Both the position numbers and the translations under genes were made by a program. From contig CP154954.1 in NCBI GenBank assembly GCA_039621445.1, forward strand, positions 41,099,572 through 41,163,571: a DNA stretch of 64,000 nt, read 5' to 3'. This document shows, piece by piece, positions 9,198 through 46,160 of the stretch (position 1 is the stretch's first letter; the number at the start of each line of letters is the position of its first letter). The DNA comes from Euglena gracilis (taxonomy: Eukaryota). Under the pieces are notes generated by a model that searched no databases, was not told where the DNA came from, and saw only the letters and a list, made by a program, of their open reading frames with translations.

Positions 9198-10255
9198 GTG
9201 AGAGCTGCTGTCCGTCAGTTGACCATGCCCTTCACTCTCACCCACCACAAATGGTGTCTGTTCATTTGCCCGCTGTGCCGCTGCCAGCCGCTTCAGTCTT
9301 CCTATTATTTTTTCGGGGCAGCGGCTCGATGTGTGGCCACAGCTTGTCCATATTTGTCCAGATTGTGCACATGGCCCCTGCCGCTGTCTGCATGGTGTGT
9401 CATTTGTCCTCATATTCTTTGCTTCTCCTGATAACCTCTGCCCACCCATCCATCCATCCACCCTCCGCTCTGCCGCCTTGACATGATGACGCAACATAAA
9501 TTGAAGTTATTCCAGCAGTCATCAGAGAACACAAAAAACAACAACAAAACCAGCACACATAAACGCACATATATGCACGCATTCATGGAAGCACTCTCAT
9601 ATGCACGCCTTATATGCGCGCGCTGCACACACCCACGCAACCCCACATGCATGCACAAAACTCACAACACACATTTGTGCCTGAGTGTGTTTGTTTATGT
9701 TACAGCCAGGAATCCCGTGTGGGGAAATTCTTACCCAAGTTTCCTTGAACCATTTATGTGCACCACTGGCTGTTTGCTTTCTTGCGATTTCGTCATTGCA
9801 ATCCCTTTACGAACCCTCTTAAGAACTTGAGCTAGGAAAGGCAGCAACATGCACCTTTTTTTAAGGGCCAGGGTCTTACCACCCATCCAGACCGGAGGAC
9901 CCCCCCCCCTTTTCCGGGGAAGCCCACCAATTGCCGCACTCCCTCGAGGAAAAACCGACAAGGGAGGGAGGGACACACGCCTCGGGCTCCGCACTTTTCC
10001 CTTGTGAGCCGGCGGTGTTGCTTGGATTGTTTTGAGGCGCTGGGAAAGGCGTTGCTGCTCAGTGCCTTTTTCGCCGAAGTTTGTTGATTCGAAAAATTTG
10101 ACCTTCGACAACCCAGAAGACAGGAACAGAGTCTAGAACGAAGGCGAACCAAGACAAGACGTCAGCGAACCACATGGAGACAATTTTTTCCGGACTGGGA
10201 GTATTACTGGGCACTAAAGGGACCCACCCAAGACCCGAATCCCGAGGTAGTCAAG

Positions 10256-11542
10256 ATGGAATTTATCGATTGCCTACCGAGGGAGGAGCGAGAACGCGCA
10301 CGCAATTTGGTGCTACGTAATGGTGTATCATTCGATAACCTGGTTGAGCAATACGCTTCAACTAACTCAAGTTTGGTCACCAGGATTACCCTGGAGAAGA
10401 AATGGCGACAATTCGCGCCATCGGATCGCAAATGGAAATCCATTGACCTTTGGTATGCCAAATGGTTAGCACTTGCTTCCGAAGTTGATGAACTTAGCGA
10501 GAAGCAAATGCGCGAACAATTCGATGCGGTTTTGTTGCATTTCACACCATCCCTCGTGAAGGATATCCATCGCGAGGAGTTGGCAGGGCATGAGATGACT
10601 CTTGCCCAACGTTGGAATTATGTGTCAAAACAACTCAAACTCACACAAGTTTTGGGACAAATACAGTCCGCTTTCCAAACGCATCCCACCGCGGGAATCC
10701 CTGCGGGTGGGGTTAATGCGTTACATAAATCACCCATGTCACCAAGATCACCCACCACGGGACCGAAAACGCGGAATCAGCGTTCTTCGGACCAAGGCAC
10801 GGATAAACTGTGCTTTTTGTGCAACAAATCTGGTCACATGTCTCGGGAATGCCCGAATCCCGATGCGCGAAAGCGTATTGGAAGCCCAAGGGGCTCGACC
10901 TCCTCACGGGGATCGGGTTCCTCGGCGTTTTCACGTCAATCGGGAGTTTCACGTTCTTCCGAGAACCGCTTTAGCGGTAGTAGGCCCAAGTCACCATCGC
11001 GTGATGGTCGGGAAACCCGTCCCTCTCGCGGTCGGTCACCTGGACCCCCTACCCGAAAACGGCATTTCAATCGTGACTCTTCACGATCGCGTTCGCGAAG
11101 TGGATCATCCTCTTCGCGGGAGTCACCGGGGAAACCCCGGTACACCGGTCATGGTCGACGGGAAACCCGTTCACCACGACGGTTCGACGGAAGAACGGAA
11201 TACCGTTCCCCCCGTTATGCGGAATCCCGCCACAAATCCCGTTGTTCACTTTGCGGTTCCAAAGATCACCACTCATCCAAATGTCCCAGATCTCGTTCCC
11301 CCCGGCCCGGCTACGGAAATCGCGGTAAGCGCCGCGAGGACCGTGGTTACTCCTCCAACCGGCAAAAGGTCGGTTTCAAGATTTCTTGTTTGGATGAGGA
11401 CACCCCGGCTTCGGGCAGGGAGGGGGATGAGACCTCGGACGGGGAATTTAATGAGGCCCGAATGGCGGTGCGCTCATTGAGTTCCATCTATTCCACCAAA
11501 AAGTCCGTTGCCGGCTATGCGGCCGGTTCGGACTTGGAGTAG
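10256..11542 (+). CDS. gag: Gag of Gypsy element 1 (frame stays open upstream of 10256)
   Basis: Two CCHC knuckles (CFLCNKSGHMSREC, CSLCGSKDHHSSKC) and an RS-rich region. Upstream in-frame WRQFFPDWEYYW matches WQGFEVDWNLYW in element 2 Gag. Confidence 0.85.
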   Translation: MEFIDCLPREERERARNLVLRNGVSFDNLVEQYASTNSSLVTRITLEKKWRQFAPSDRKWKSIDLWYAKWLALASEVDELSEKQMREQFDAVLLHFTPSLVKDIHREELAGHEMTLAQRWNYVSKQLKLTQVLGQIQSAFQTHPTAGIPAGGVNALHKSPMSPRSPTTGPKTRNQRSSDQGTDKLCFLCNKSGHMSRECPNPDARKRIGSPRGSTSSRGSGSSAFSRQSGVSRSSENRFSGSRPKSPSRDGRETRPSRGRSPGPPTRKRHFNRDSSRSRSRSGSSSSRESPGKPRYTGHGRRETRSPRRFDGRTEYRSPRYAESRHKSRCSLCGSKDHHSSKCPRSRSPRPGYGNRGKRREDRGYSSNRQKVGFKISCLDEDTPASGREGDETSDGEFNEARMAVRSLSSIYSTKKSVAGYAAGSDLE

Positions 11543-11626
11543 GGGAGCCCGAGGCCCGAGGGCACGGACCTCTGGGCTGATGAACAGATGGAGGAAAGAC
11601 CTGATCAACCTTTCCCCTCCTGCCCT
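11540..11626 (+). promoter_or_regulatory. Putative UAG readthrough signal between gag and pol
   Basis: gag TAG is in frame with pol; 8-nt spacer, stem GAGGCCCG/CGGACCTC, loop AGGGCA complementary to TGCCCT (11621-11626). Confidence 0.5.
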
Positions 11627-14600
11627 TTCCGCCTTCACGGTCAGTACCCGGAATTATTTCGGTCCCCCACCCCCCACTCCACATTTCCGCTCGGAATGCT
11701 GAGCAAAGTAGGAAAGGGTTCATGGGAAAGCTGGCATGCAAACGTATTTCCGCCAGACCTTTCACTTTGCGTACCACCAATGGAATTACTTGTCCAAGCG
11801 GAAATCCGCATCCAAAATTTCTCCGCGAAAGTTAAAATTCTCATTGACACTGGTTGTCGCATTGCACTGCTCTTTCGGTTGGGGTTGATACCGACCCCGC
11901 TCTTGGTAAGCGCCAAGAAACCGATCAAAATTACAACCGCGGATAACACCCTCATGTGTGGTGGTGATTTGGGATGTGTCCTCGAGATACTCTTGCCCAT
12001 CATTCCGAAGCATCACTCACAACCCCCACAATTACAACATTTCACCAATATTTGGGGTTACGAGTCCGGAATTCACGGGTCTGACGTATTTTTGGGATAC
12101 CCATTTTTACGCCAGTACCGATTGGTTGTGGATTGCCAGTCCCACGGTTTGCGCACAGCACCCACCACTTCATTGACACCCAAACCACCATCACCGTTGA
12201 CATCCGCCATGATGACCACCACACCAACAACCGTTTTCCACACCCGGGGTACGGAGAAAGCCTCCCCCCTGCCCAACGACACACCAACATGCGTTCCACA
12301 TGAGGCAGGGCAAGCCAGTAGCGGTACCCCCGCCGTTTCACTGGGTTACAAGACGAAAGCCCAAAGGCCTGAAGAAATTACGGTGTCGAGTAGTCGCCCA
12401 GCTACACCACCACTCCGTTTCCCACCAGTTGTGCCGAATCCAGGCACACCTGTACAAGACTCACCGGCTAATGCCATCGACACCCACCTACACGCACACC
12501 TGTCACACCAACACACTTCCTTCCAATGTGTGCACTGCAGGAGAATTTCCACCCAATCGGATTTCGATTGTGGATGTTTAGTTCAAAATCCGACACTAAT
12601 CGCCATTCCGAAAGCGGAATCCACACCCCAGGATACACTAAGTTGTAGCCCGCAGTGCGCGGAGATACACCGAGTGCTCCAACAACGCGGATTAGCCTCG
12701 TTGTTCGGAAACGCGAAAAGCGTCATGCCTAATCACCATCACGAGTACACTTGGTACGTATTTGATGCGGAATGGGGAAATCCCCAACCTGTCCAAACTC
12801 CCTTGGTATTATCCCTTGAGGTAGTGGAAGACAACCCGCATGGTTGTGGATCCATTCATTGTGTTTCTTCACTCCAACCCGGAAATCGGGTACATGAATA
12901 CGTGGAACGCGTATGGAATGCTTTCAATTTTGGTCAATATCGCATTTTGGAACGATGGTTTTCCAACATCGCGACATTGGCTGATTCTTTTGATTTGGCA
13001 TTGGAAATCGATGCCTTTTCATCCAATGCACATGCCCGTTTGCCACGTCATTGGTCACAACACTCCAACGCATTTAATAAATTTTGGGGTGATACGGTGT
13101 TATGGATACACCCTCCCCCAAAACTTATCGAATGTGCGGTTGGGAAGATTCTGCGGGATGAAGCCCGTGGAGTTATTCTCATACCCATCATTCCGGAAGC
13201 GGAATGGTTCACCCAACTATCGTATGTATGTTTTTATTGGTGGGATTTACCCACTAATGTGCCGATTTTTGAGGATTTTTGTGGTAAAATATTACCACCC
13301 TTGCAAGAAATCATTTTTCGCGTATGTTTCTTCGATGCATTCGGAATGTCCGAATTCGCGGTGCCGAGGAAGCTCGGTAGCCCCAGGGATACCCTGGTGG
13401 TTTCCGCAGTCATCGAGAGTGCAGGTCAGCATCCTAAGTCAGCCGAATTCTGTTCGCGGATCACCCGCGAATTTCACGGTGTGCTGGAAAATCCAGTATA
13501 CGCGTGCGACATCGACCCCGCGATACGCGGTCCGTTCGGTGTTTGTAAAATCGAGCTTAAGGATGGAGCCAAACCAATGCACCGGAATTTTTTTCGTTGT
13601 TCGGGAGAACGCGAACAAGCTCTCAATGAAATGATTGAGAAGCTTATTCAGCGCAAGTGGATTGTACCCTCGAAAAGCGAGTGGACATCCCAGGCATTTG
13701 TTGTTCCTAAACCCCCAGACCCCTCAGGTCAGAAGAAATGGAGACTGGTGCTGGATTACCGGTACCTGAACTCCCAAACAAGGGATGATCCCTTCCCGCT
13801 CCCCCTGATCGAGGATTTGATCACCAAGCAATCGGAAAACCGGTTGTGGTCAATTTTCGATCTGGAGGACGGTTTACACCAAATGCACTTGCACCCTACC
13901 CTGACTCACAACCATACTCGGCATTCGTGACATCCAAGGGTGTGTACCAATGGACGGTACTCCCCATGGGTGTTAAGAATGGCCCAGCCATGTTTCAGCG
14001 CATGATACAATGGGTTCTACGCGATTTACCGTTTGCCATATCCTCGTCACACACTTCCACCATGTTTGCGCGGTATTAGCCGCCTTTCAAAAACATGTGC
14101 TTTTCGCGAAAGGCGCGAAAATGCATTTGTTTCAGATTCTCATAAAATTTTGCGGTCACATCCTCAGCAATGGACAGCGGAAAGCCGCTCCGAGTAAACT
14201 CGAAGCCATTAAGAAATGGACCCCTGAGGTAATCAAAACGATTACACACCTCAAAGGATTTTTGGGATTAGCCCAATACTACGCGATTTATATGAAGGGC
14301 TTCGCGAAAATCGCGGTACCCCTCACCAAACAGCTCAAAAACCGGGCTGTTGGCAACACCAAAGTCATTTGGGATGACCAAATGCGCGAGACCCTTGAGA
14401 AAATCAAGGTTTTGCTTTTGGAGAATGTTGTCCTCGAAATCGCGGACCCCTACAAACCATACGTCTTGGAAGTCGACAGCAGCGATTCCGCTGTTGGCGG
14501 AGTTCTTAGCCAGCATAATGCGGCAAATGAGCTCCGACCTGTGGCTTTCTTCAGCAGAAAGTTACAGGGCGACGATGGAAAAGGCCAAGTCAAATGGAGT

Positions 14601-16542
14601 ATACGCGAGAAGGAAACCTACGCAATCGTGCTTATACTCCAGAAATTCCGAAGCTGGGTAGCCAGCAGCCTCGTCCTGATCCTCGTCAAGACCGACCATG
14701 AGAGCCTCCAACACTGGTACACCGAGGATTTGAACAAGGCCATGTCATCGGTCGGAAGGCGATGCAGATGGCATGAGTTCTTGAATCAATTCAACCTTGT
14801 GGTTATTTATACCCCTGGACACACACAAAAAGTAGCGGATCCGCTCAGTCGGGCCCCTTGGTATTACCCTGGGAACCCGGATGAGGGAGACGCGACTTTT
14901 CATGGAAGTCAGGAAGCTGACAAATACGCACGTCGAAACGACGCTGCGGATAATCTTTTGGATTCTTTTCCCGTTTCACAACTATTCCTGGTCGCACCAG
15001 TGCACGGAAGGCGCCGACGTGGAAACACGTCCGGGCCCCGGCGTATTACGTGTACGGAGTCCCCTTCACCACTGTTCTTTCGCGAATGGGATTATAGTCG
15101 TGATCCGGTGTATGACACCATTGCAACCAGACTTCGTAATGGCGAAGTGCTGGACAATTACACTCTTTCACCTTTACGGTTGGTTTTTCGCAATGAATCG
15201 GGTTACAAATATTGTATTCCCCAGGACCTGGTTGATGATGTGATTTTGTGTTATCACAACCATGGTCACCCTGGGGCCCCCAAACTTCTTTCGTTGGTGG
15301 GCCGCAGGTATTGCACAACCCTGAGCGAGAAAGAGCTTTACTCACGCTGTTTGCGAATAGCGCAACGGTGTCAAATTTGTCAAGCGGTAAAACCCCGCAG
15401 AGGTACCCCCCCTGGTACGATGGACTTTTTCCCCGTACCCCCTGACATTTTTACATCCCTCTGCATGGATTTTCTGGAATTAGAACCGTGCAAAGGAACG
15501 GACGACAAAATTTACGATTACGTTTTTGTTGTCGTCTGCAGGCTGAGTGGGTACATTGTAGCCATTCCATGCCAGAAGTCAGGGTTGACTGCCCAAAGTT
15601 TGGCAACTATATTTTTGGAGAAATGCATTTGCTTAATGGGTTTACCGAATGAAATCGTGAGTGATCAAGACCATTTGATTTCTTCAAGGTTTTTTCACCA
15701 CTTTGTGCGGTTTACTCGGAATCGAGCAACATTTTTCCATTATATACCGACCCAAAGGCAATGGTAGAGCCGAGGCAGCCGTGAAATCCGTCGTGAATAT
15801 GCTTCGCCTTTCACTGGCTGACTCGCGCAGCAACTGGATATCAGTTCTACCATGGTCTTTGTTTTATATCAATACCCTACCAGGGTTGGTTTTACCTCAC
15901 TCCCCTTATAAATTAGTTTTCGGACGGGACCCTCCGGCCATAGGGGATGTCCCTTCGGAGAGACCCGCCCGAACGAGTGTCAGTTGCGAGACCTGGTTTG
16001 CGGAAGTAGAAAATCTACGTTCTGCAGTCCAGAAGCGCGTCACTGATATTCATGCAACCAAACGGAAACCGTTTTGGCAGAATTTCAAGTCACCTGTGTA
16101 TAGCCCCGGTGACCGTGTGTGGGTGCGGAATAGCCGCACTCGCATGCAGTCTTCCAATCTGGACCCCCTCTGGCTCGGCCCCTGTGAAATCCTAGAAAGA
16201 CTAGGTACCAGCGGGCGTTACAAGGTTGCATTACCGAATGGTGTTGAGGACGTTCATATGGACGACTTCAAACCATACCTGTCGCCACCGGATGGGAAAC
16301 CCATCCCGTGTTTGCACTTCAAACCCCGTTCCAGATTACCTGAGACGGACGACTTTGTAGTCGATAAAATTATCGATCACAAAATCGACAAAGGTATGCA
16401 CCTTTGGAAGGTCCGCTGGAAAGGGTATGGGCCCGAGGAGGACACTTGGGAGCCAGCAACCAGTTTTGTTGGGTATGTCCAACAGGATTGGAAGCTGTGG
16501 AACAAGAAGCATAATATTAATGTTTCCATGACAAGTTTTTGA
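11588..16542 (+). pseudogene. pol: Pol of Gypsy element 1 (protease, MTase-like domain, RT, RNase H, integrase, chromodomain), frameshifted
   Basis: LIDTGC protease; WRLVLDYRYLN and LPMGVKNGPAMFQ RT motifs with the YxDD segment deleted near 14040; RNase H VDSSDSAVGGVL/TDHESL; integrase HNHGH..CQIC, MDF, SDQD, GRAE; chromodomain VDKIIDH..WKVRWKGYGPEEDTWEP. Split over ORFs 11588, 13846, 14010, 15703. Confidence 0.92.
12932..13340 (+). other. Dam-like / DIRS-type N6-adenine MTase domain inside Gypsy Pol
   Basis: EIDAFSSNAHARLPRHWS..NAFNKFW..LWIHPPPKLI..ILIP..EWFTQL is colinear with the DIRS MT domains in this window (LFASPGNKKL..NAL..YANPPW..LIVPQW..WW). Confidence 0.75.
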
Positions 16543-16704
16543 GAACGCATGGGAAACCCATGTTGTTTTCTTTTTCTTTTTATCATTGATTCTGCTCATT
16601 CTTTCTTTCCGCAGACTTTTACCAAATAATACTCAAGCGGTTACCCTCACACACCTTACAACCAACAACCCCAACATCCCACCGTACCGACCCCGGGCTG
16701 TATC

Positions 16705-19700
16705 ATGCTGCCCGGTGGAAGGGAGCCAGGCGGAGGACCGCCTTACCACCCCACCACTCACCCTCAACCTGACCAGTATGCGTACCGATACGGTACACAG
16801 CCACCTGCACGGACTGCGGCTCAGGGAAACCCTGAAGCCAGCAGCAGTAGCAGGATGACCCAGATGCCCGCGGAAGCGCGGCCATCTCAGCCATCAGGCT
16901 CTCGTCGCCTCCCACCGTATGCGGGTGTGATGATCCACCGCACGGCGGAGACGATGAACCGGGTTATGCGTATGAGCGCAAACCCGGCACCAGACCAACT
17001 CACACAGGCATTGTGGGATGACCACTGCCGTAAAGTTTTGACCATCGCGAATACCCCTCCAGCCCTGTGGTGTATGTGCGCCCAGGCGACGATGACCGGT
17101 CTGGTGTATTACACCGACCCGGACGCGTCGGGATTCGCGGCAGACATTACCATGCGTGACCTGGGCGTGGAAGTCCCGCCACAGGTCGCACGGCAGGTAC
17201 CACCAGTTGGCACTTACACTGCACATTTTCGTGCTCACTCCCCCGGATTACCCGAGGAAGAGACAGTGGAAGCACCTGTCCGGAGTGAACACCCACGTGT
17301 GAAAGAAAGTATTTTTCGATCCCCTGAGCGCATGCCCCGGCGGGATTATCCTGCGCAGGAGCCTGTGTCTCAGTATACCGTCTCTGGGGATTACCCCCAG
17401 GAGGCGCCAATGCCACGGGATCAGTACGTATATCCACCTCAACCCCACCCAACCATACGTGACCCTATCCCACGACGTCCTGCGGAGGGGAATCCTCCCC
17501 CGACGTCTGACTCTGCCCGAAGCGCTCGTCCGCGGGAAGCCGCGGCAGCGCCTCGTGCGGCACCAGTTCCCCCGGTACGGGATGAACCCGTTAACCCGTG
17601 GACTGGCCGGCCGTTTGAGACTGAGGAGGAGCGTCAACAGTATGAATATGCTGTGACGATCCAACGACAAATCGCACGTCGCCCCCCTGTTTCCGCTGGC
17701 CAGGGATACCCTGCCCGGGCGGAAATGACACGGGACGAGCGCCAGCAGTATGATGCCGCTGTGTCGGCGCTCACAGGAATCCCAGCTTCATCACGATCAA
17801 GTCAACCAGCGCGACAGCAGGACGTTGCTGTGGCGGAAGCGCCTCCAGCACGGCCCACAGGCTCTGCCGCCGGCAAACGTGACCGCGGCCCGGAAAATCT
17901 GACGCCGCAGCCACAGCGCCGCTCGCCGAGGTCGGAAAATCCGCCCGCGGCGATGCACGTCGACGCTGAGGAGGAAGCTCCGCCAGCGCCAGGCGTGTCG
18001 GCAGAACGGGCACGTCGGGAAACCCGACCATCCCCAGTCGCACCGGTTTACTCGAAGCGTGGTGACGCTGAGCAGGAATTTGCTCGAACACCAAGCACGG
18101 AATCCGTGACTTACCCCTTGTTTACACCAGAAGACCCAGACTACTGGGAATACTTTGACCCATACCGGGCGACCTTTGAATGGCTGTCTAACACAAAGGG
18201 TAAGGGGAAGGGTAAAGGCAAGGGTAAGGGAAAGGAAAAGGCCAGGAGAAAGGTGGGAAAGCCCCACCTGGCAAAGGCGGAAAAGCCGCCTGGCCAGCTC
18301 CAGGCAAAGGCGGAAAATCTGCCGGACCCCCAGCAGGCAAGGGCGGGAAAGCCGCCGAACCTTCGAAAACGAAGGATTATGACGTTGCCTCAGTGTTCAA
18401 GTACCTGGAGGAGATCTGGCCGAAAATCGACGAGGATCTCCAAAAGTTCACAAGGGCAGGCAACGTCATCCACCGACCACCGGATGCGGTGCTCGAAGTG
18501 GTGCAGAATCGTATGAACGATCACTGCAAACGTTTTTTCTACAGTGCCGAACTTCATGCGTTCGAGGGATACCCTCATTCGAATGAAGTTGTCCTGGACC
18601 AGATGCCTGGTTTCTGGGAGCTGTGGTTCTGGTTTGGATACCCCTGCCAGAATTTCGGCATTTTTACCGACCGAAACGGTCTAACGTACATCGATTGCCT
18701 GAATACCTGTGAAGACGGCGAAACGTTCGTCGCACAGTTGAAGGAAATCTTCAACCACATGTTTTCAGTCAGCGTACTGGGAATCCAGTGGAAGTATTAC
18801 CCCCTGCCGGAGAAACTCCAGGCGCAGGCTGCGGTAATGTTCACGAACAACCTCCAAGTCTTCTTGGACAGCATGTATGGCATGCTGTTCAAGGTACTGG
18901 ACGTGGACCTCGCGTACCCCCAGCGGTACAAACTGGAATGCCAGTTTTGCAAGGAAGTCCATATCGTTGACTTCTGGGGTTTCGGAGAACGCGGAAAACC
19001 GCCTCCGTCTGCCGAGAATGCCGGCAGACAGCCGACCAGGAGATTCCTCCTGCATCAGTGCCGGAATCCCCAGATCGGAACGCAAGACCGAAAGGTGCTG
19101 AAACAGCACCGGCAGAAAATATTTCTGCTGCAGCAGTACTGGCACAGGGCGTGGATTACCTACGTCCTGGAGGTCTACATATATTTCCTGGAATATATGA
19201 CCACCGATGTGGAAATCCACAGACAGTGGTTGCCTCGAGGATATATGGAGGTGAACGCCATACCCAATGACCCAGACCAGCGCATGATGAACCTGCGACC
19301 AGACTGGGAAGAGGCCGAAATCGGTCTCTAGGAACACCTGGAGACCCAATTCGGGAATATCCTGATATGGGAGGATTTTCAGATTTTTTTCGCGGCGCAC
19401 GAAGGGGAAGTCCCTCGTTACGCGCTGCCACTGCCTGCATTCCTGGAAGAAACCGGAGAGTTTGGCGTGACTGACCATTGTCGACGACAGTGGGAAGACC
19501 TTTGCTTGATCGACGATGATCAACCACAGCCTCCACCCGAAAGCTGGGTGAGAGCGACATGGCCACCCCCATACCCCAATTCTGACAGGAGTGAAAGTAT
19601 TAGTTTTTTCCGCCTGTCGAACGCACAAGGGTGCTACAGGAGGGGGAAAGACCCGCGTTCTGCAGCACAGCTACACGCAGCCGAATCCTCTCCGGAAGCG

Positions 19701-22137
19701 GAGGAGGAGGAGGAGGAGGAGGTCCCAATGGCCGAGGATGAACCTCAGCCAACGGAACCTCCGGCACGGGAAACCCGTAGCCCATCGGTAGTGATGCTGG
19801 ATACTGTGGCAGAAACCGCCCAACACCCAGGATCACAGGCAGGTGAAATGACACCTGTCCATCTATCACCAACCTCACTGGGTACAGCGGGTGTACCAAC
19901 CCCTCCCCGGGAAAACCCGCCGGAAACGGTGCCCCACACGCCTGAGGTATTACGCCTCAAGCTCCCTGTTTCCGGGGGAACCCCGTTAACAGAGGAGCCA
20001 GCCGAGGAGCCCACTTCAGGTGAGGAGAGACGCACCTCGCTGGGCGGACGCGTACTCGGTGGTTTACAGTCGCTGATCGTAGTTGTCACTCCACGTGGCA
20101 CTGCGGCCAGTTCTTCCGCAGCTGCCAGCGGCGGAAGAAACAGCTGACACTGCAGCCATGGTGGAGGATGAACCTCACCCAACGGCAGCGCCACCGCCAG
20201 TGTCGGAAGCGACACGGACGGAGGGCGAAAGGACAGCAATGACTGTGGAGACAACACCGGCCGTGTCAGTACAGGATGAACCTGTATCGACACCGGCGGC
20301 ACCACCGGAGGCACGGGATGAACCCGTACCTCATGGTACAGCCACAATCACCGCAGAGAAGCGTCAAGGCACACGGACACCGGCGCCTGAAAAACAGGCC
20401 GAGCGGGCGTGCATGCCTCCACCACAGGCTCAGCCAGCGCGAAGTGCACAGGCTAGGCCTACACCACCACCATCCCCCACGGCTACCCCTGGGAAACCTT
20501 CGGGAGCCGTGAAGGAGCGTGTAGGACGACCATCAGCTCGGGAAACCCCTGCTGAAGGTCAACGACGTTCGGCGTCGGGGAAAAGACCCCCGTCCCAAGC
20601 GTCACCACACACGTGGGCAAGCAAACGAGACGCCGAGCGGCGCCCCTCGGAGACTCCGGAAACCGGAAGCCCGAAGGCCCCGGCGAAAAGTAAACCGGGA
20701 GCCACACCTTGCAAACCCACACCGAAATCTGGTGATCAGCCCCCACCGAAAGGCGGTGGTGGTGCTGGCGGCCAGAGTGCTGCATCCTCTTCTCGGGGAT
20801 TAACCTCGGGACAAGGATTCACGCATGTCACGTCAGCCGGCTATGGGAAAACCTCACAGCCGAAACCTCCGACAACGGGGCAGGGAAAATCCCGCGCCTC
20901 GACAGCCGAGACACCTTCAGAAGACGAAGTTGTCATCGACTGGAACGCGATCAATCAGGATGACCCTGACGTTCATGACCTGAAAAACAGGTACATGATG
21001 ATCGCACATAAATTGAGAACACAGAAATGCCTTAACCGGTGGATTGAGCCACTGTTATGTCAGGGACGGAAATAGTACTTTGATCAGAACGTCACCTGGA
21101 ATTATTACAATTCCAGGTCCCCCCGTGTTTTTTGCCCAATCCTTCGGTGAGGAATTCCTCATCGACAAAACAACGGAAAGCCGTTTTGTGTGGCTTTGCA
21201 CTGTATGCCACAAGATGTACAACAGTGCACCTGACCTGGGATTACCCCTCGTTCATGTGTGCAACCTGTGGATCGGAAATCGTTCCACAATGATGTATAC
21301 ATTCCTAACTGTGCCGCCTTGGTATGTGCCAAGTGCGTGGACAGTTGGACCCACAAGCACAATTTCAGTTACACCGACCGAGATGGTACGAATGTACCAG
21401 TTCTCTGCGTCAACTGCCTTCGAGGTACCTTCTGGCACACTGCGGAAGGCGCAGTACGCACAATCGTGCCAAGTGACGAGAAGCCACTGGAGGAATACTC
21501 CACCTTGAACAAAAAGTTCAAGGACTTTTTCAAGTATGCCAACCTTAAGCTTGACGACTACCGCCACACGGGAATGGCCCGTGTGTGGCAGATCGACAGT
21601 GGGGCGATACGCCTCGCTGCTGAGGAGGCAGGGGTAAGATTACCTTACCTCTGGGAAACAGCAGACAGGGAAAAGATACTTTTCCGCCTGTTCCAAAACC
21701 AGGACCGAAATGGTCGCTGGTGCCTGCCACAATGGCCACCCAAAAACCACGGGATGACCTGGAAAGACTGGCTTGGGGCCGTATTACGACCCAATACAGT
21801 CCGCGCAGAATGTGCGTATCACATGCCGATTGACTTCCACCCGGGGAATGCCCCGCAGGTGTCAGCCAATCACCCAAGGATGAACTACTTCATCCGGCCA
21901 GCAACTCTGCCCAGGAAATTCTGGGAGAAGCTGCAGTGGTTCCTCGCGGAAAGAGCGAGTGCAACCAAGCACACAGTCCCCGAAGGATGGGTTCGGGACT
22001 GGGTGGCACCTGATTTCGAATACGAATCGCCAGAAACCTGGCTCGTAGATAGGCCACCACCACCACAATTCCAGATGGTCCTTGTGGAAGATCCCTTGGA
22101 CTCCCGCCATGATTATTGGCGGCTGGAACGGATGTAA
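16705..22137 (+). pseudogene. Large extra ORF (~1800 codons, broken) downstream of integrase in Gypsy element 1
   Basis: Overlapping same-strand ORFs 16705, 18393, 19467 (same frame as 18393 across one TAG), 20083, 21044, 21259; Pro-rich linkers, KG/GKGGK repeats, two aromatic-rich regions with CxxC motifs. Confidence 0.6.
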
Positions 22138-22194: not shown

Positions 22195-22657
22195 TCCATA
22201 TACTATACATACATATAGGACTATAATATATATCATATATCAGATATATACAAAGATAGAAGATAGATGGATATAGAGGAGAGATACTATAAGATATAGA
22301 ACAGATATAGCTAGAGATAGGGAATATATCATCTATATATATATATATATATAGAAGAGATACAGAGAGAGAGATAGCAGAGATAGATAGAGAGAGATAG
22401 AGGAGAGAGAGAGAGAGAGAGAAGAGATAGAGAGAGAAGAGAGAGAGAGAGAAGAGAGAGAGAGAGAAGAGAGAGATATAGAGAGAGAGATATAAGATAG
22501 ATATATAGAGAGAGATATCTATCTATATATATATAATAGAGAGAGAGAGAGATATATATATATATATATATATATAGATATCTATATATTCTCTATATAT
22601 AATATTATATATATATATATGTATATATATAGATATATATGTATATATATATATACA
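22195..22657. repeat. Compound (TA)n/(GA)n microsatellite
   Basis: Irregular TA and GA dinucleotide runs; possibly low-quality consensus. Confidence 0.9.
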
Positions 22658-23829
22658 TTGGTAGCGGAAATCGCTAAACAGCCCTGGGATGAACCTGGGT
22701 CTGACACTCTACGCTCTGGATGGAAGCATCCGAGAGCCACCCCCCCCCCCCCCCCCCACCCCCCTCTGCCAATGGCCATGCGGACGGATACCGTCTGCAA
22801 GAGGTAATCGCCTCTTATTGCGTCGTGAAGGAGCTACTGCTGTGAAGACCTTGGCAGCCGGGAAACCTGGCAAGCCGCTAAGTGGCGCACAGCACACAGC
22901 GTGCACGCCGTAATAATAGGCCAACTTGTCACTTTTCGGCCCTAAGGCCCTCAAGGCTGCCAGACAGCAAAAATTCTGTTCTGGCCTAAGCCAGCCCCCC
23001 TCTCCTCCCTACTTTCCCCCCACCCCCGCAAAGCTGTCGCCGGCCCCCCCCTTCCACACCTCTCCCCTCGGGTTTTCAGCGAATCGCTTGACCAACCCCG
23101 CGTGCCTTTGGCACACCCAAAGTGGGTGGATGGGACACTTTGTCAGGAAACCTGCCAAGCCCCGTTTCCCACGGTGGGCGTTTTCACACCACACCTAATC
23201 CGAAAAGGCTAATAGGTAACCGCGAAACGCGGCTAACCTTTTGCGCGTTTTTGGGCTTTGGGTGGATGCCACTGTGCGGAAAGGAGAGACACCGAATGTA
23301 GAAGTGAACCCCACCTAGGGCAGCGTCAGATATCCTGACTGGACTGGGAAACCCTGGTCCATGAAGGAAATCGGGCGTAGCCCTGGGAGGTGGATGTGTA
23401 CCAGGCACGTCCCAGCTCTGTAGGATATCTGCAGAGTGGGTTCTGTGACGGTCGTACCACTGTGGAAAACCACAGCTGGTAGGATCGTGGCAGACCCTTC
23501 TGGGATCTGCCCCTGGACACGTCAGCACTTTTCTCTCCTTCCCCCACAGGTGGTATTCTTTACTCTCACAATCTCAAAGTTTGACCATTGGTTTTGTCAG
23601 AGGGAAAAACCCTCAGAACAGTCGAACTTGATCTCAGAAGAAACTTCTGAGTCTTTGCTTTGTGCTTTGCTTCTTGGGGAATTGGGAAGAAAAAGGGAAA
23701 ACCACTTTTCGTTACTCCAAAGACTTTTCCCTACCATAAGTAGGCTGCGCACCAAGGCGAAAGCGAAAGGCTTTTACAGAAAGTTCCAAAAAGGGGAAAA
23801 TGGAAAGCTTTGGACGTACACTGGACCCC

Positions 23830-24260: not shown

Positions 24261-24489
24261 AGTCCTCCTTGGGCACTTCCTTGTCCTTGGTTGCATCTTC
24301 GCCAGCCTTGTTGGAAATGTGTCTTGGTAGCTGGGAGGCAGTGTGGGTCCTGCCTTTTGCAGCGCCTGGGTTCCTGTTGTCCCATCTTGCTTGGTGTTCT
24401 GCCCCCAATGCCCAGGGTTTTCTGCCCCTATTGGGCTGGGGGTTTCGTACTCCCTCGAGGAGGACCGACAAGGGAGAAAGGGACACTGA

Positions 24490-25550
24490 AAGTGAATCAC
24501 AGAGACCTTGTGAGGCCATGCCTTCCCCGCCGGCAATGTTGTTTGGATTGTTTGCCGCTTTGGGTTAGGAGGTCCCGCTTAGTGCCGCCTCGCCGGAGTT
24601 GGCTGACGATGCTGCTCCGGCTTGGCGACGTGACTTCTTGCCCTTGGGGGGGCCGGGGCATTTTCTAGGGCATCTTGAGCACCAAGTCTTTGATACTGGG
24701 CTGTAAAAGCATCCACCCCCCTTCACTGGCCAATTTCGCAAACTTCTTTGGCAGAAAGGCCTAATTTTTTGAGGTAACCAACCACTGCCCATCTGGTGGA
24801 GTGGGCCCCCCACACCTGTGGGGTTACCCCATACTTGGCCAAAGATTCTTTTGTGACAGTAGCAATGGTATCTGCACTTACGGCCATGAAGGGGGGTTTT
24901 AATTAATCGGACGGGGGCCGCCCCCAGGTCAGGTGAATGAACGCGTGGCAGCCACGTAAGACATCATTAAATGAAAGGGGCTTATTTGTGGACACGCAGG
25001 AATGGACACCACTCTCTGCAGCTTGTGAAACTTCTGGCCTTTACACTCAATTTTTATGTAAACCCCCCCCCAAATAATAAACCCCCCCCAAATAATAAAC
25101 CCTCCCCAAATAATAAACCCCCCCAAATAATAAACCCCCCCCTGAGGACCGACTTCGGCCGCCCAAATAATAAACCCCCCCTCCGGCAGGTGCGAAGCCA
25201 AAGAAAAACAGAGTCAAAAATTAACAGAAATGTTGCCAAAAATCACAAAAATGGGACAAATTGGTGCAGAAAATGTTCCAAAAAATCACACAATTTTCAA
25301 AAAAGCCCAAAAATGCCAAAAAAATGACTATTGGGGCCTGTGGAGGGGTTTTCGGGCCGATTTTTGCCTTCGAAATTTTTGCCCAAATAATAAACCCCCC
25401 CCCAAATAATAAACCCCCCCCTGGACCCTGACTTCGGGTGTCCAAATAATAAACCGGGGGGGTTTATTATTTGGGGGGGGGGGTTTAGGGCACCCTACAC
25501 AACACACTGGTGTTTCGCTTGATCTGTGCCAAGTCTGAGCACATGAATAA
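24490..25550 (-). mobile_element. DIRS fragment (YR C-terminus and terminal sequence), interrupted by a MITE
   Basis: Reverse-complement homolog of 33900-34380 (KWERVVSIP..ISPFHLMMSYV; DAFTAQYQRLG); 24490-24655 is similar to the reverse complement of 60120-60260. Confidence 0.7.
25061..25485. mobile_element. Tc1/mariner-type MITE with AATAATAAACCCC subrepeats
   Basis: TIR AAC(C)nAAATAATAAACC / GGTTTATTATTT(G)nTT; TA duplicated (25059-60, 25486-87); removal rejoins the YR sequence as in the uninterrupted copy near 33955. Confidence 0.8.
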
Positions 25551-25639: not shown

Positions 25640-27990
25640 CGCCAGCAACTCCGCACAGGAAGGGGCAGAAAAGGTTTGCCAAAACACACCAATTTTTCAA
25701 GCACCACAACCCCTCCTAAGGGGAAGGGGGAGGGCACAGCAGCCCCCCCAGACTTCAAATGGTGCTGGAGACCAAGCAAAAGCTACCAGGGCCATGGAGG
25801 CCAGAATTATATTCAAGGCCAGGAAGGACAGTTTCAATAACAAGGCCAGCAAGGCCAGAATCATCTGCAAGGCTGTGGCAGCCAGAAATTGCAGGGCCAT
25901 GAAGGCCACATGCACCAGGGCAATGGGGCCCAAAGGGGTGGTCCAACACTGGCCACCCAGAAGCTAAGGTGCAAACCTCATTCAAATCAGTTGGCACAGC
26001 CCCAGGAGGATGCCCCAGAAGGAGCAGTGGAGGAAAAGGTGGTCAACATTTATTTACGCCCATGGCAGGGGATGATCAAAAATAGGGGGGTACCCACAGA
26101 GGCCCCCCCATGTGGTATGTCTTCTGACAACGCCAGGAACAAAACGGAGGACCAGAGAGTCGGTGAGCACAGAGGGAGAGAGTACATGCGCACCACCACC
26201 CCCCGTGTCTTTTTCAAAATTTTCAAACGGGTGAAATTTCCAACGCCCCCATCTCAACTCTCGGAAAATCACCGAATTGGGGAAATGGTTTCCTGGGATG
26301 GCAAGTTGGCAGATAACCCCCTACACCAGATGCTTCAAAAAGCCTGCACTGGTGGCAGAAAAGTTCCCCTGCAGCAACCTGTCAACTCATCAAAGATGGA
26401 ATCCTCCCCCCCCCTGGGTAAGGCACCCAAAATTATCCACCCACCCAAAACCCAGAGCCAATTTAGACCTGAAACAGACAGAAAAAATCCTGGACTACAA
26501 GAAAACTGCTTCAGTAAAAAGAGTGGGTGAGTCAGGAACCCAACATTTAACACCATGGTTTTCAATTTCAAAACCAGAAGGGGGGGCAACAAAATAGAGA
26601 ATGATCAGCGACTTCAGAGAACTAAACCAGCGCTTTTCAGTAAAACATTCAAAAAGAATCACATCCAGCACATTTTCCAAGTTTTGGAAAAAAGGCAACT
26701 GAGCAGAAAAAAAGCGGATTTGATGTGTATTTTCACATCCCAGTCAGCCATGCCCCAAGACCATTCTTGAGACAGCAGGTGGGGGACATACCTGGGATTT
26801 CCAGGATGAGGCAGGCTGTTTTGGCCTGAATGTCATGCACCAAATTTTCGTGGGGGTGATGAAAACATTTGAAAAGCTATGAAGAAAAAGGGGAATTATA
26901 GTATTCATATACCTGGACGACATTTTGCTGGTGGCCCCAACACAAAACAAGTTAAAAATTCATCTCAGCACAGTGGTCATATATTTACTGAAAGCAGGGT
27001 CAAAATTAACGTCAAAAAGTCCACCATTCAGCCCACACAAATTGTACATCATCTTGGGGTTCAACTCAACTTCCAAGAAGAAAGATTGCAAGTGCCCCCC
27101 TCCCATAAAGTAAAGACAATAAAGAAAGAACTGGTGAACAATGGGGGAAAGACCTCATGTCAAAAAGGCAACTGGCTGCCATTTTGGGCCTGATAAGGTG
27201 CACTCACATGGCATTTTTGCCATGAGAGTGCACTCTCATTGCCATTTCTCAGGGCTTTCACAGTCTCCCTGGCAATTTTTTTTGGTAGCAAAGTCCACAG
27301 CCCCCTGGGATTCAAAACATCCCATTTCACAGAAACTGAAAGCCCAATCGTGGGAAAAAAAATCCTACGGGACACCTGGGTGGGAGACCCTTCCCCAAAA
27401 CTACAACCAGATAGGTGCACTCATACATCAGCACCCATGCCTGGGGGGGACATTCAAACAGGCAGAATCGTGCAATAATTTTGGAGAGAAGGCTTTGTTT
27501 TGCACATAAATGTAAAAGAGCTGTGGGCAGCAATAAACACTGTATAAACACTCAGCAGACCAGGGGGAACAGTTTCCTTGTCATGAGACAACCAGGTAAT
27601 CAATCTACTGTTACCTAACAAGGGGGGGGGGGTGCTGAAGAAACACCATCAACTCCATTCTGAGACCTTTTTGAAATGGTGCATGGAGCACAACATAAAC
27701 CTTCAACTGAAGTGGGTCCCTTCAAAGGAATGTCCAGTAGACCCTATAAGCAGATGGGAGACGGACAGGAGCGGTTTCTCTGAATACAACCAACTTTTCA
27801 ATGACTAAGGCAGCAATTACGTGACTTCAAAACCATTGAAACAGTTTTTTTTTCCTCCGTAGGCAACAAAAAAACTACCTAAATTTGTGGCCAGTTGGCA
27901 TCGTTTGGGAGCCTCAGGGGTGGATGCACTGCGGTGTCCCCTGGACAATTTATGGGTTCTTTGTGCCAACCACCATGGGGGCGCTGGGAA
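25640..27990 (+). mobile_element. Decayed DIRS copy (gag 3' part, RT, RNase H, start of MT)
   Basis: YLDDILL near 26910; LHINVKEL RNase H; GVDALRCPL MT; many frameshifts. Confidence 0.8.
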
Positions 27991-28584: not shown

Positions 28585-31500
28585 AAAAGACTCTGATAAC
28601 GTTTGAAAACTGGGGTTTATCCCCAGGAAATCGTGAATAGTTTTAACCGGAATTTGTTTCCCCTCCAAAATTTGCCTGAGCAAATCATGCAAAACAGGGG
28701 CCACCTGGGGGGTGGCATTTGCTCCCCCCTGCAATTGGCGAACATACCCCTGTAAGGGGGTGATTCTGAGGCTGGGGGTCCTGGGCAGTTTCATTTTTAT
28801 TAAATATGGCCACCAGGTGGCTGAATCCCAGTTGGGGGTGACCATCAAAACTTTGGTCTGGGGAAACGTTTTCAACCTGGGCAGAAAAATTTCAATTATT
28901 AACTGTGGGTTTGCATAAATATCTCTCATGTTATCCAGTGGACATTGTAATGCATTTACTGCTGTTGCATCCAACTAAGACCATGTGGCAACAAAATTGG
29001 TCAGTTTTTTGTTGCCTGGGGAGGCAAATAAATATGTTTCTAAGTGCATGAAATTTTGGAAACGCTGTCTTAGCAAGTGAAAAAGCTGGGAGTCTAAACA
29101 GTAATCCCCCCTGTCCATTTCCCATCTGCTTATGAGGTCTGCAAGGTAGTCTTTTGAGGGCACCCAGCTGACTTGGAGGTTTACTTGTTTTTCCGTGCAC
29201 CATTTGAAAAATGGTCTTAGAATTTTGTTGATTGGGTCCTTTCTGCCCCCACCCCGTTTTGGCAGGTAATAGAAAATTGCCTGGTTGTCTACGGACAAGG
29301 AAACTGTTTCCCCAGGTTTGCTCAAACTTTTAACAGTGCTTATTGCTGCACTGAGCTCCTTTACATTTATGTGTAAAACGGAGTCTTTCTCCAAAGTTGC
29401 TGCACAATTTCTCCTGTGTGGATGTCCAGCTCCCCGCCAGGCATAGGTGCTGCTGTCTGAGTGTAACTCCCTGGTTGCATTTTGGGGGAAAGGTCTGCCC
29501 CCCAGACGTCCAGTACAATTTTTATTTCCCTTACTTGGGCCTTGGTTTCCTGGGAAATGCGGTGTTTTGAGTCCCAGGGGGCTCTGGCCTTTGCCACCAA
29601 AAAAATTCGCAAGTGGTGTCTGTATAAACTCTTAAAAAGGGCAGGGCCAGTAGGTTGCATCTTATTTGACCCAAAATTGCAGCCAACTGCCTTTTCGACA
29701 GATAATCTTTTTCACAATTTTTCCCTGCTCCTTTTCTACTGTTTTGACTTTCTGGGGGGGTCACCTGTAACTTTCCTTCCGGGAAGTTTAGTTGAAAACC
29801 CTGATGGGTTACCACTTGGGTGGGCTGCAGGGTGGACTCTTTCACATTGATTTTGAACCAAGAATTCAGCAAATCTGTGACGACTGTGTTCAGGTGATTT
29901 TATAAATGTTCTAGGTTGGTGCCACCAGCAAAATGTGGTCCAGGAAAATGAACACCTGTATGCCCCTTTTTCTCCACAGCCTTTCGAAAGTTTTCATTCA
30001 TGACATGAAATTTGGGTCATTAAATTTAGCCGAAAGCAGCCTGTTTGAAATTCCCAGGTCTGCCCCCCTACCTGATGATTTAAAAATGGCCTTTGGCCTA
30101 TTTGGAATATGAAAACAGGCATCCAAGCAGGTCTTTTTTCGCTGCCCAGTGGCCTTTTCCAAAACGGGAAAAATTTGTTGGATATGATCCAGCTTGTAAG
30201 GTTTTACTTGAAACTGCAGATTTATTTCTCTGCAGTCGCTGATCACTCTCCATTTGGTTGTTCCCCCTTCTGGTTTTGAAATTAAAAACCATGTGATCAA
30301 ATGCTGGGTTTCTGAGTCCCAAACACGTTTCACTGACCCAGTTTTTTCGTAATCCAGCAGAATTTTTTCTACCTGGTTCAGGACCAAGTTGGCTCTGGGT
30401 TTTGGGTGGGTGGACAATTGTGGGGATTTACCCAGGGGGGTTGAATTTCATTTTTTATCAATTTACATGTTGCTGGGGGAGGGGGCATTTTTCGTCCACC
30501 ATTTTAGACTCTTCCGAAGTCTCTGGTACAGGGGGGTGTCTCCCATTTTTCCTCCATGGAATGTTTTTTTAAACTGAATGATTTTATTTTGGCTGGGTGG
30601 GGGGTGATGGGCATCGCACAGCACCTAGAGCCCCTGGGGGCTTGAGCCCTTGTAAAAAGAAAGTGCTCCTGGGGGGGATGTACATGCATGTACATCCCTT
30701 TGTACCTTTCTGCTCACTCTCTCTGGGGAATCTTGTTGTTGGTTTCCATACGTTTTGCCTATACGGCCTTCTTCATGTTGACGGGGTTGCTACGCACACC
30801 ATAAGGGGGGCCTCTGTGCCCACGCTCTTGTTGATGGAATAAGAATAAATGCCGATGGGGAGTCTCCCACTTCCTGTTCCTCTTGGATCGCCATTGGAGG
30901 GCCATCGTCTTCCTGGGGATGGGCATGGGGCTGCCCACCTAATTACAAAGCCCTTGCAGGGATGCCCCTTAGCTTCTGGTGGGCCTGTGAAGCCCCGCCC
31001 CTGTGGCCTTGTTTTAATTGTTGATCCTCTTGTTGATATTTCTGGCCCCAATGGCCTTGATGATAAGTTGAAAGTCCGCAATGGCCTGATTGGTTTCTGA
31101 AGCGCCATGCCCATTTGAAATCTTGACGTGTTCTTCGGACCACACCCCTGACCCATGAGAGGTGGTTTGATTGAGAAATGGTGGGGATGTTGTGTTTGAT
31201 CTTGTCTGCCCCTGCCATGTCCTGTGAGGTCTTGGCGCTAGTGGCCACCTTGGCCTTTGTTCCAGCGACTTTTGTAAATCCAGACGCCTTCATCGTCGTT
31301 TGCGCCGTCATGGCCTTTGTTGCCCATGTCCTGTGCGCTTTGGCTCTGCCATAGCCTCGCTTTAATGGCACTGACTTGTGGAATGTTGGCCCGCATTTCC
31401 CTGGCTCCAATGGCCGTAATGGTCTGCTGGTTGTTGCTTCTGCCACTTGCAGGGTCTTCTGACCACTGTCTGCCAGGGCCCGCGGCCATGACGTTGGGGT

Positions 31501-32589: not shown

Positions 32590-34430
32590 TTGCTTTTTTG
32601 GTGGCAAAGATCACAGCCCCCTGGCACTCAAAGCACCCCATTTCCGAGGAAACCAAGGCCCAATTAAGAGAAATAAAATTTTTACTGGACATCTGGGGGG
32701 GGCAGACCTTTCCCCAAAATGCAACCAGGGAGTTACACTCAGACAGCAGCACCTATGCCTGGGGGGGGGGCTGGACATCCACACGGGATAAATTGTTCAG
32801 GAATTTTGGAGAAAGGACTCCGTTTTACACATAAATGTAAAGGAGCTCAGTGCAGCAATCAGCACAGTGAAAAGTTTGAGCAAACCGGGGGAAATAGTTC
32901 CTTTATCCGTAGACAACCAGGCAATTTTCTACTACCTGACAAACTGGGTGGGGGCAGAAAGGACCCTTCAACAAAATGCTAAGACCGTTTTTCAAAATAG
33001 TGCATGGAAAAATAAGTAAACCTCCAAGTCAGCTGGGTTCCTTCAAAGGAATGCCTAGCAGACCCCATAAGCAGATGGGAAATGGACAGGGGTGATTACT
33101 GTTTAGACACCCATCATTTTCACTGGCTAAGACAGCATTTCAAAAATTTCATACACTTGTAAACTGATTTATTTGTCTCCCCAGGCAACAAAAAACTGAC
33201 CAATTTTGTGGCCAGATGTCCCCACTTGGAGGCCACAGCAGTAAATGCATTACAATGTCCACTGGACAACATGAGGGATTTTTATGCAACCCCCCCCCAG
33301 TCAATAATTCAAATAATTTTGCCCAGGTTGAAAATATTTCCCAAGACCAAAGTTTTGATGGTCACCCCCTACTGGGATTCAGCCACATGGTGGACCCAAT
33401 TAATAAAAATGAAAGTGCCCGGGACTCCCTGCCTCAGAGTCACCCCTTACAGGGGTATGTTCACCAATTGCAGTGGGAACAAATGACGCCCCCCAGGTGT
33501 CCCCTGTTTTGCATGATTTGCTCAGGCAAATATTGGAGGGGAAACAAATTCAGGTTAAAACCATTGACGATTTCCTGGGGAGAAACCCCAGTTTAAAATG
33601 TCATGAGAGTGCTTTTGCACTTCCGTGGGTAATTTAGGAGCATATGAGGGTGCCCCCTCCTAAAGCCACAGACCAAGTGGTTGAACCTTTAATACTATAA
33701 TTCCAGTTTTCCAAGGCCCAAGCCCATAATGCATACAGTGCTACGCTTTTGATTCCTGGGTTTGGTGGGCTCAGATTCCAAACCCTGTTGACTTCTTACA
33801 AGAGGCTTCGGAACCAAACATCTGCAGAAGAATGGGGCACTTTGGGACCGCCTCCTAGTCCTCCTGGGCTGGCCAAAGCCCCTCACGAATCCGCTGTTAA
33901 TACAGGTCCTCAGACATGGCACAGAACAAGCGAAACACCAGTGTGTTGTGTTGGGTACCCTACATAAAAATTCAGTGTGAAGGCCAGAAGTTTCACAAGT
34001 GGGAGAGGGTGGTGTCCATTCCCCCAGGTCCACAAATAAGTCCCTTTCATTTAATGATGTCTTACGTGGCTGCCACACCTTCATTCGTCAGACCTGTCTG
34101 CCCCCTTCTGATTTCATTAAAACCCCCCTTCAGGGCAATAAGCGCAGATACCATTGCTTCTGTCACAAAATAATCTTTGGACAAGCATGCGGTGACCCAC
34201 AAGGTGTGGGGGGCCTACTCCACCATGAGGGCAGTGGTTGGTTCACTCAAACATTTAGGCGTTTCTGCCCAAGAGGTTTGCGAAATTGGCCAGTGGAGGG
34301 GATTGAAGCTTTTACAGCCCATTACCAAAGACCTGGTGCCCAATGTGCCCTAGAAACTGCCCTGGCCCCCCTAATTCCAGTGCACAGTCAGGCCTCACAA
34401 GGGCAAAGTGCGGAGCCCGAGGTGTCTCTT
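32590..34430 (+). mobile_element. Decayed DIRS copy (RNase H, MT, tyrosine recombinase)
   Basis: HSDSSTYAWGG; NALQCPL..FYATPP..TPYWDSATWW; YR region 33750-34380. Confidence 0.85.
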
Positions 34431-40857: not shown

Positions 40858-40915
40858 GGAGGCCAGGGGCAGTTTGAGAAGGGGGGGGCTGCCCATGGCC
40901 GTGTCTCTCCCCCCT
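40855..40915 (+). promoter_or_regulatory. Putative MuLV-like UAG readthrough pseudoknot
   Basis: TAG + 8-nt GGAGGCCA spacer + stem 1 GGGCAG/CTGCCC + stem 2 AGGGGGG/CCCCCCT. Confidence 0.6.
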
Positions 40916-41129
40916 GTGAGGAAAATTGTGTAAATATTTCTGATTCAAAAGACTGGGCTGTACAGGATTTTATGGCTGATTCAGGGGTGGGGAAAAACAT
41001 TCTATGGATCAGCCCGCCAGATTTTTGATTCGGATCCGATACTCCTGGAGGGAAGGGAAATGTTCAAGGGTTCCCATTTTGCATACAAACCTGCCACAAC
41101 CCAACCCCCTACCATCAGCCCAGCGACCT

Positions 41130-46124: not shown

Positions 46125-46160
46125 AAAAAGGGGGGAAGGAGAGGTGAAAAAGGGCCTGGA

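Follow-up and report, generated by a model that had tools for sequence, protein, structure and literature searches.

A predicted Dam-like methyltransferase-fold domain with the motif HPPP in the Pol polyprotein of a Ty3/Gypsy chromovirus from Euglena gracilis

Introduction

How did a Dam-like adenine methyltransferase (MT) domain come to lie between the protease and the reverse transcriptase (RT) of a Ty3/Gypsy retrotransposon, and what could it do there with a catalytic motif that reads HPPP? This question is raised by a stretch of 64,000 nucleotides from Euglena gracilis (GenBank assembly GCA_039621445.1, contig CP154954.1, positions 41,099,572 to 41,163,571 of the forward strand), which is here called the window and to which all coordinates refer. 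A first-pass annotation, made from the letters of the window, placed a DIRS-type MT domain at 12932 to 13340, within the Pol of a Gypsy element, and proposed that the domain had moved between retrotransposon orders or come from a common donor. Retrotransposons with their own chromatin- or DNA-modifying modules show the adaptation of mobile elements to host epigenomes.

The MT domain of DIRS1-like elements is reported to have been treated by Goodwin and Poulter. In DIRS elements, the MT domain is located after RT and RNase H, in the pol of a tyrosine recombinase element, and its function is given as unknown in the accessible text of a 2011 overview (PMC3266345). The domain in the window, in contrast, lies ahead of RT, and its element has a DDE integrase. 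Adenine methyltransferase domains in long terminal repeat (LTR) elements other than DIRS are claimed for the first time in a preprint by Fernandez-Moreno et al. (bioRxiv, 22 May 2026; 10.64898/2026.05.21.726589). According to its accessible text, it covers 10,030 eukaryotic DAM proteins, distinguishes five lineages of LTR elements with such a domain (DAM-LTRs), including a chromovirus-like one, and infers that transfer from DIRS to LTR elements took place four times or more. Since DAM-LTRs are described there, the premise of the first-pass annotation that Dam-like domains do not occur in Ty3/Gypsy elements is outdated. A full-text literature search returned no further report of LTR elements with an adenine methyltransferase domain, and the accessible text of the Chlamydomonas v6 and Ectocarpus transposable-element papers holds nothing on Dam-like domains in Gypsy elements.

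Results and discussion

Sequence and predicted fold of the domain

The stretch from 12932 to 13340 (+) translates to 136 residues without a stop codon, in the pol frame and between the protease motif and RT. It lies within an open frame of 795 codons (11543 to 13930, +) that forms the first open part of pol, in agreement with the uninterrupted stretch of about 135 amino acids originally noticed. We consider it highly probable that this stretch belongs, as a genuine protein domain, to the eukaryotic Dam-like family borne by retrotransposons (known from DIRS elements as the MT domain), that it is built into a chromovirus Pol and that it would be kept for a job outside the canonical chemistry of asparagine and an aromatic residue. 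The placement of a DIRS-type, Dam-like MT domain between the protease and RT of a Gypsy Pol is supported by Pfam, phmmer, fold prediction and hhalign.

In Pfam, the domain matches Dam (PF05869), which comprises phage and bacterial DNA N6-adenine methyltransferases, with an E value of 2.2e-4. Residues 16 to 94 correspond to profile positions 22 to 104 of 169, i.e., to about half of the profile including the PP motif, with His standing for Asn. For eukaryotic DAMs in general, the alignment is reported to extend over no more than a part of the prokaryotic enzyme (10.64898/2026.05.21.726589, accessible text). A phmmer search of 1.84 billion representative proteins, using a 201-residue query around the domain, yielded 316 proteins with an E value of 1e-3 or lower, 86 of them at 1e-10 or lower and 10 at 1e-30 or lower. 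A profile match was thus obtained as anticipated in the first-pass annotation, below the Pfam cut-off for the domain itself and together with 316 relatives. The profile match of the relatives spans window positions 12923 to 13354. Furthermore, 10 of the 27 relatives scanned passed the Pfam Dam cut-off, namely P0019, P0021, P0027, P0054, P0055, P0128 and P0135 as well as three proteins of other architectures, P0113, P0120 and P0151.

An AlphaFold2 model based on an alignment of 37 sequences (predicted local distance difference test [pLDDT], 87.3; predicted template-modelling [TM] score, 0.76) shows a compact alpha/beta domain comprising residues 7 to 159 of 201, which corresponds to window positions 12878 to 13342 (+). 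The top Foldseek match is 6irw, a cap-specific adenosine N6-methyltransferase (E value, 2.1e-4; TM score, 0.52), followed by Dot1L and KsgA. A second structural scan of 48,161 chains, not based on Foldseek, ranked 6irx highest (Z score, 10.3; 127 aligned residues; root-mean-square deviation, 2.7), followed by PH1948 (Z, 9.9), METTL5 (8.8), KsgA (8.7), M.BseCI (8.1), T4 Dam (7.7), M.TaqI (7.5) and E. coli Dam (7.4); Z scores of 7 to 8 are a common background for unrelated models, and the top value lies somewhat above it. The list is dominated by adenine amino-methyltransferases. The model hence predicts with high confidence that the domain adopts a class-I (Rossmann-like) methyltransferase fold that is closest to those of N6-adenine methyltransferases, and the absence of a Rossmann fold, named in the first-pass annotation as the result that would overturn it, was not observed. 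The first strand of the sheet carries the sequence DAFSS (13010 to 13024, +), in which D and F are nearly invariant among the relatives and which we take to be the equivalent of motif I (D/ExFxGxG).

PCIF1/CAPAM (6irw and 6irx) is the closest solved fold by both methods, yet it shares only 11 to 14% identity with the domain at a TM score of about 0.5, and, as an enzyme of the host, it acts on RNA and has additional domains. Likeness of the predicted fold to PCIF1/CAPAM does not establish function.

A chance match or a generic Rossmann-like fold, which would make the stretch a mere spacer between protease and RT, fits the sub-threshold Pfam score, the lack of a sequence match to solved structures and the background level of Z scores of 7 to 8. 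We nevertheless regard it as extremely improbable, since 86 relatives were found at 1e-10 or lower, seven relatives and three proteins of other architectures exceed the Dam cut-off, the top Z score stands above background in a list dominated by adenine N6-methyltransferases, and the order of motifs is that of DIRS MT domains (see below).

Relatives with the same architecture

The only close relative in a word-indexed search was P0003, a protein of 1,208 residues that is 64% identical over the query region. It carries the same Dam-like domain, followed by RVT_1, RNase H and an integrase zinc-binding domain. The domain is thus retained in a sister protein; its absence from sister copies would have spoken against the first-pass annotation. 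A single protein of 1,677 residues, P0155, unites Dam, RVT_1, RNase H, integrase, SH3 and Chromo, and both proteins have the domain order of the window element. Among 151 relatives, a Gypsy-type post-domain and RT region lies downstream of the domain in 30; among the 44 relatives in which the domain is followed by 100 residues or more, the number is 26. RT or RNase H lies upstream of the domain in three relatives, and the remaining 118 are too short or have neither.

The element in the window combines a Dam-like domain with RVT_1 and a DDE integrase in one Pol, with no tyrosine recombinase, and is a DAM-LTR in the sense of the preprint as far as its text is accessible (10.64898/2026.05.21.726589). 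The chromovirus-like DAM-LTRs described there likewise carry the DIRS-type Dam-like domain in a Pol with a DDE integrase and a chromodomain, so that the class is already in print; what sets the window family apart is its unusual catalytic motif, HPPP, whereas Asn-Pro-Pro is reported for almost all DAMs. The family may have escaped the screen of the preprint, because that screen used hmmsearch with E values of 1e-5 or lower and the Pfam match of the window domain (2.2e-4) is weaker.

Two relatives show other arrangements. P0151, one of the three proteins with RT or RNase H upstream, is a Pol of 1,905 residues with protease, RVT_1, RNase H, Dam (E value, 6.4e-13) and integrase; its Dam domain is positioned between RNase H and integrase, unlike that of the window element. 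P0107 shows rve (residues 109 to 183), a Dam-like match below the cut-off (561 to 606; E value, 7.1e-5) and RVT_2 (974 to 1074), i.e., a Ty1/Copia order, whereas the accessible text of the preprint names Ty3/Gypsy-like DAM-LTRs alone (10.64898/2026.05.21.726589).

The altered motif IV and its distribution

At positions 13109 to 13120 (+), in the place of motif IV, the domain reads HPPP. Canonical motif IV is (N/D)PP(F/Y/W), with which the Asn-Pro-Pro of the preprint agrees. The PP pair is kept in the window domain, while Asn and the aromatic residue are both replaced. The first-pass annotation had asked whether sister copies have NPP[FW]; P0003 reads HPPL and the closest relatives mostly NPP[I/L/V]. 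Among the 139 of 151 segments that cover the motif, it starts with N in 90, with H in 30, with C in 11 and with another residue in eight, and PP is kept in 111. An aromatic fourth residue occurs in 67 of the 90 N-type, seven of the 30 H-type and 10 of the 11 C-type segments. Since P0003 has HPPL and His is present in 30 of the 139 relatives, HPPP is evidently a trait of the family rather than a product of decay in the window copy.

We placed the nearest 45 rows in a quick maximum-likelihood tree of 142 columns. The window domain and P0003 form a pair (Shimodaira-Hasegawa-like approximate likelihood ratio test, 98) inside a group that mostly reads NPP[I/L/V], and the His state requires at least five changes on this tree. 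The suggestion that HPPP might be inactive or repurposed is borne out to the extent that His recurs together with the loss of the aromatic residue.

The family is very abundant, with 7,375 and 2,116 pieces on a 1-kb stretch in two DNA runs; contigs for the assessment of copy number came from four public runs and were taken at a likeness of at least 80%. None of the 40 contig differences shown (of 151) affects the His codon. The preceding codon differs by one letter in nearly all contigs, so that they encode Met where the window copy has Ile, and the loose end of one contig translates to LWMHPP. Within the domain, the window copy differs from the contig majority at four listed places. The stretch is also covered by contigs of one RNA library and of further runs presumed to be RNA; such coverage does not demonstrate transcription.

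A distant Dam-like stretch with the motif WIHPPY was found on a metagenome contig (L011:335-571, +). It is 32% identical to the window domain and represents a His-type sequence that keeps the aromatic residue.

Constraint on the domain and its possible role

Identity to P0003 is 47% in the linker before the domain, 73% in the domain (no gaps), 47% in the linker after it and 88% at the start of RT, a pattern that fits purifying selection on the domain in the His-type lineage. Conserved sites outside the motif are also kept: D51 is present in 21 of 23 His-type and 83 of 86 Asn-type sequences, W76 in 27 of 28 and 86 of 89, and K96 in 28 of 28 and 86 of 89, respectively. The other conserved sites are retained by the His type about as often as by the Asn type. 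A search for sister DNA with P0003 confirmed none of 11 stretches, and a degenerate DNA pattern matched 60 loci, among which only the above-mentioned metagenome contig encodes a relative.

The identity of the domain and of the element is well supported, and the function of the domain is inferred. We favour a non-canonical or non-catalytic role. Because both motif IV side chains are replaced, the replacement is inherited and recurrent, and conservation extends over the remainder of the domain, it would act without canonical methyl transfer: with HPP[P/L] in place of NPP[F/Y/W], it appears to be kept for another job. Most likely, it would bind the nucleic acid of the element itself or an adenine in it, or it would recruit a host methyltransferase in the way that METTL14 serves METTL3. 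METTL14 has an EPPL motif without an aromatic residue and is described as catalytically inactive (PMC5023411, accessible text); with its methyltransferase fold and degenerate motif IV it offers an analogy for how the window domain could work. It belongs to the MT-A70 family and acts together with METTL3, and no homology to the window domain is claimed. If this is correct, the domain would provide an LTR element with binding, recruitment or a different chemistry instead of canonical N6-methyl transfer. The domain is predicted to be translated with Pol and would thus travel with RT and integrase.

Several points weigh against this interpretation. The domain scores 21.4 bits against PF05869 and does not reach the gathering score of 28.1 bits, and the profile of relatives gave no match to solved structures at E values up to 10. 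The tree stems from a quick search over 142 columns, and support is below 80 for 18 of its 41 inner branches. His and aromatic residues were counted in sequences that are related to each other, so that the counts do not represent independent events, and many of the representatives are fragmentary and may derive from decayed copies. As a measure of selection, identity by region to a single sister protein is only a rough proxy. LTRs were looked for around the copy (10088 to 16542), and no repeat pair was found; a weak colinear match links 9935 to 10087 with 24446 to 24606. Furthermore, His could accept the hydrogen bond of Asn, in which case methyl transfer would still be possible. Finally, DAM-LTR copies are reported to carry more N6-methyladenine (6mA) than other LTR elements in three species (10.64898/2026.05.21.726589, accessible text), which speaks for a role linked to methylation in the class as a whole.

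In the model of the preprint for DAM-LTRs, the domain is a working N6-adenine methyltransferase that places 6mA on complementary DNA or new insertions, so that the host maintains open chromatin there. Applied to the HPPP domain, this model is in line with a fold nearest to N6-adenine methyltransferases, with the retention of DxF, PP and the other conserved sites, with the conservation of the domain relative to its flanks and the very high copy number of the family, as well as with the 6mA signal just mentioned. We consider it a serious rival, if rather unlikely here, as both motif IV side chains are replaced while almost all DAMs have Asn-Pro-Pro, and as several eukaryotic DAMs showed no gain of 6mA when tested in dam-deficient E. 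coli (10.64898/2026.05.21.726589, accessible text). The family is a natural variant in which both hallmark side chains are replaced while the domain is conserved and the family thrives, and given these negative assays it bears on the question of whether the domains of DAM-LTRs methylate at all.

With regard to the favoured non-canonical role, we tentatively suggest, as a possibility somewhat short of an even chance, that His-type and perhaps Cys-type Dam-like domains represent a selected non-canonical class. Its members would have evolved repeatedly from domains of the Asn type within LTR elements, with the stacking aromatic residue lost and the rest of the fold kept, and one of its families would have attained very high copy number.

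The element and the state of the window copy

The element starts with a gag open frame of 484 codons (10088 to 11542, +) encoding a CCHC zinc knuckle (zf-CCHC; E value, 1.5e-6). Gag and pol share one frame and are divided solely by a TAG codon at 11540 to 11542 (+). This single TAG may be passed by read-through during expression, or it may be a nonsense change of the dead copy.

The first open part of pol (11543 to 13930, +) contains, in this order, a protease motif, a Cys motif, the Dam-like domain and the start of RT. The putative retropepsin region (11780 to 12110, +) is assigned by its position and by LIDTG (11840 to 11854) and GYPFL (12095 to 12109), which we take to be hallmarks of retropepsins; both are conserved among relatives (alignment A2), and the sole Pfam match of the region is a sub-threshold one to Peptidase_A3 (E value, 0.062). 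A four-Cys motif (12527 to 12577, +), consisting of CxxC, about 10 residues and CxC, lies 100 to 150 residues upstream of the Dam-like domain. It is common to the closest relatives and present in six of the 33 relatives whose upstream sequence comprises 150 residues or more, with C30, C33, R35, D43 and C44 invariant in alignment A2. When folded jointly with the domain, the motif reached a pLDDT of 56 to 69 and the linker was disordered. The motif is possibly a zinc-binding element.

The N-terminal part of RT spans 13706 to 14040 (+), and the end of RT, RNase H, the integrase zinc-binding domain and the integrase core follow at 13977 to 15767 (+), with Pfam matches to RT_RNaseH_2 (E value, 5.9e-23), Integrase_H2C2 (1.2e-6) and rve (26.8 bits, under its cut-off). 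The frame from 15679 to 16542 (+) encodes an SH3-like C-terminal part of the integrase (SH3_Tf2-1; E value, 3.5e-6) and a chromodomain (Chromo; 1e-10). The order of a Ty3/Gypsy chromovirus, i.e., protease, RT, RNase H, integrase and C-terminal chromodomain, is thus complete, with the protease assigned from its DTG motif and a sub-threshold match. By this predicted domain order, the element that carries the Dam-like domain is a Ty3/Gypsy chromovirus.

The RT catalytic core of the window copy is not intact. Frame changes occur near 13897 and at 14040, and at the latter site about 21 residues of P0003, including the YIDD box, have no counterpart in the window copy. Because of these frame changes and the missing YIDD box, the copy cannot be autonomous; it is dead.

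Directly after the chromodomain frame, the region from 16630 to 22137 (+) contains five long open frames (271 to 628 codons) with proline-rich, partly repetitive translations, for which Pfam gave no match. Just downstream of them, a long GA/TA-rich simple repeat extends from 22239 to 22668.

Neighbouring DIRS-like copies in the window

Four DIRS-like MT stretches in the window were used for comparison. The first (33088 to 33414, +) reads YATPP and is preceded by an RNase H-like stretch, and the second (50822 to 51318, +) reads YANPPW, contains a frame change and lies downstream of an RT-like stretch. The third (28708 to 29211, -) has a stop codon and a frame change and is 70% identical to the 33-kb copy, and the fourth is partial (27668 to 27952, +). 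In these fragments, the MT-like stretch comes after an RT/RNase H-like one. Pfam searches at E values up to 1 recognised neither the MT stretch at 33163 to 33483 nor a recombinase-like stretch at 34174 to 34350; since no tyrosine recombinase was confirmed, the label DIRS rests on the order of RT, RNase H and MT and on the motifs.

A tblastn search of the domain against the window returned only the domain itself, with the next match at an E value of 0.073. A six-frame search with a profile of the Gypsy-borne relatives picked only the domain of the window element and the DIRS-like MT stretches, the latter with independent E values of about 1e-3 and, in one case, 1.5. Furthermore, hhalign aligned the profile of the relatives with the copy at 33163 to 33483 over 74 columns (23% identity; P value, 5.5e-4; probability, 30%), with the same order of motifs on both sides: DxFxS, N..[KR]L, NA[FL], xPP, K, a beta strand ending in P, and WF/WW. 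The colinearity with neighbouring DIRS MT domains proposed at the outset therefore holds over these columns, as the trace of a distant relationship. The Gypsy-borne domain and the MT domain of DIRS1-like elements would accordingly be distant homologs that share their conserved motif order. The F..(C)G...PP tail, which had been proposed as a further shared feature, is common to the Gypsy-borne relatives; for the DIRS copies it was not confirmed, as it lies outside the hhalign alignment.

At only about 23% identity, the neighbouring DIRS-like copies are evidently not the donor of the domain, and recent local exchange is excluded as judged from this divergence. The same value bears on the idea that the domain is foreign to the Gypsy element, in the form of an inserted DIRS fragment or an assembly join. 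Such an origin would not be out of place in a window of nested transposons that includes several DIRS-like fragments, one of which has an LTR element inside it, but it is very improbable: the domain shares its frame with the protease motif and RT, it is not accompanied by a DIRS RT, RNase H or recombinase, and the same order recurs in independent proteins of other sources, namely P0003, P0009, P0023, P0027, P0054 and P0155.

Other features of the window

No clear host gene was recognised among the open frames examined in the window, and Rfam and tRNA scans gave no matches. The sole candidate is an open frame at 60884 to 61894 (-) with a short, sub-threshold CEP19-like match (E value, 2.4e-5; 33 residues). 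A second Gypsy-like element (36054 to 49606, +) has 1.1-kb LTRs that are 97.7% identical and is without a Dam-like domain. It sits inside a DIRS-like copy, whose halves (34578 to 36053 and 49609 to 50623) are contiguous in another copy at 59639 to 57202 (-). Adjoining the DIRS-like MT stretch near 51 kb is an inverted repeat of about 890 bases with 88% identity (51293 to 52183 and 52938 to 53827), which may represent terminal repeats or two head-to-head copies.

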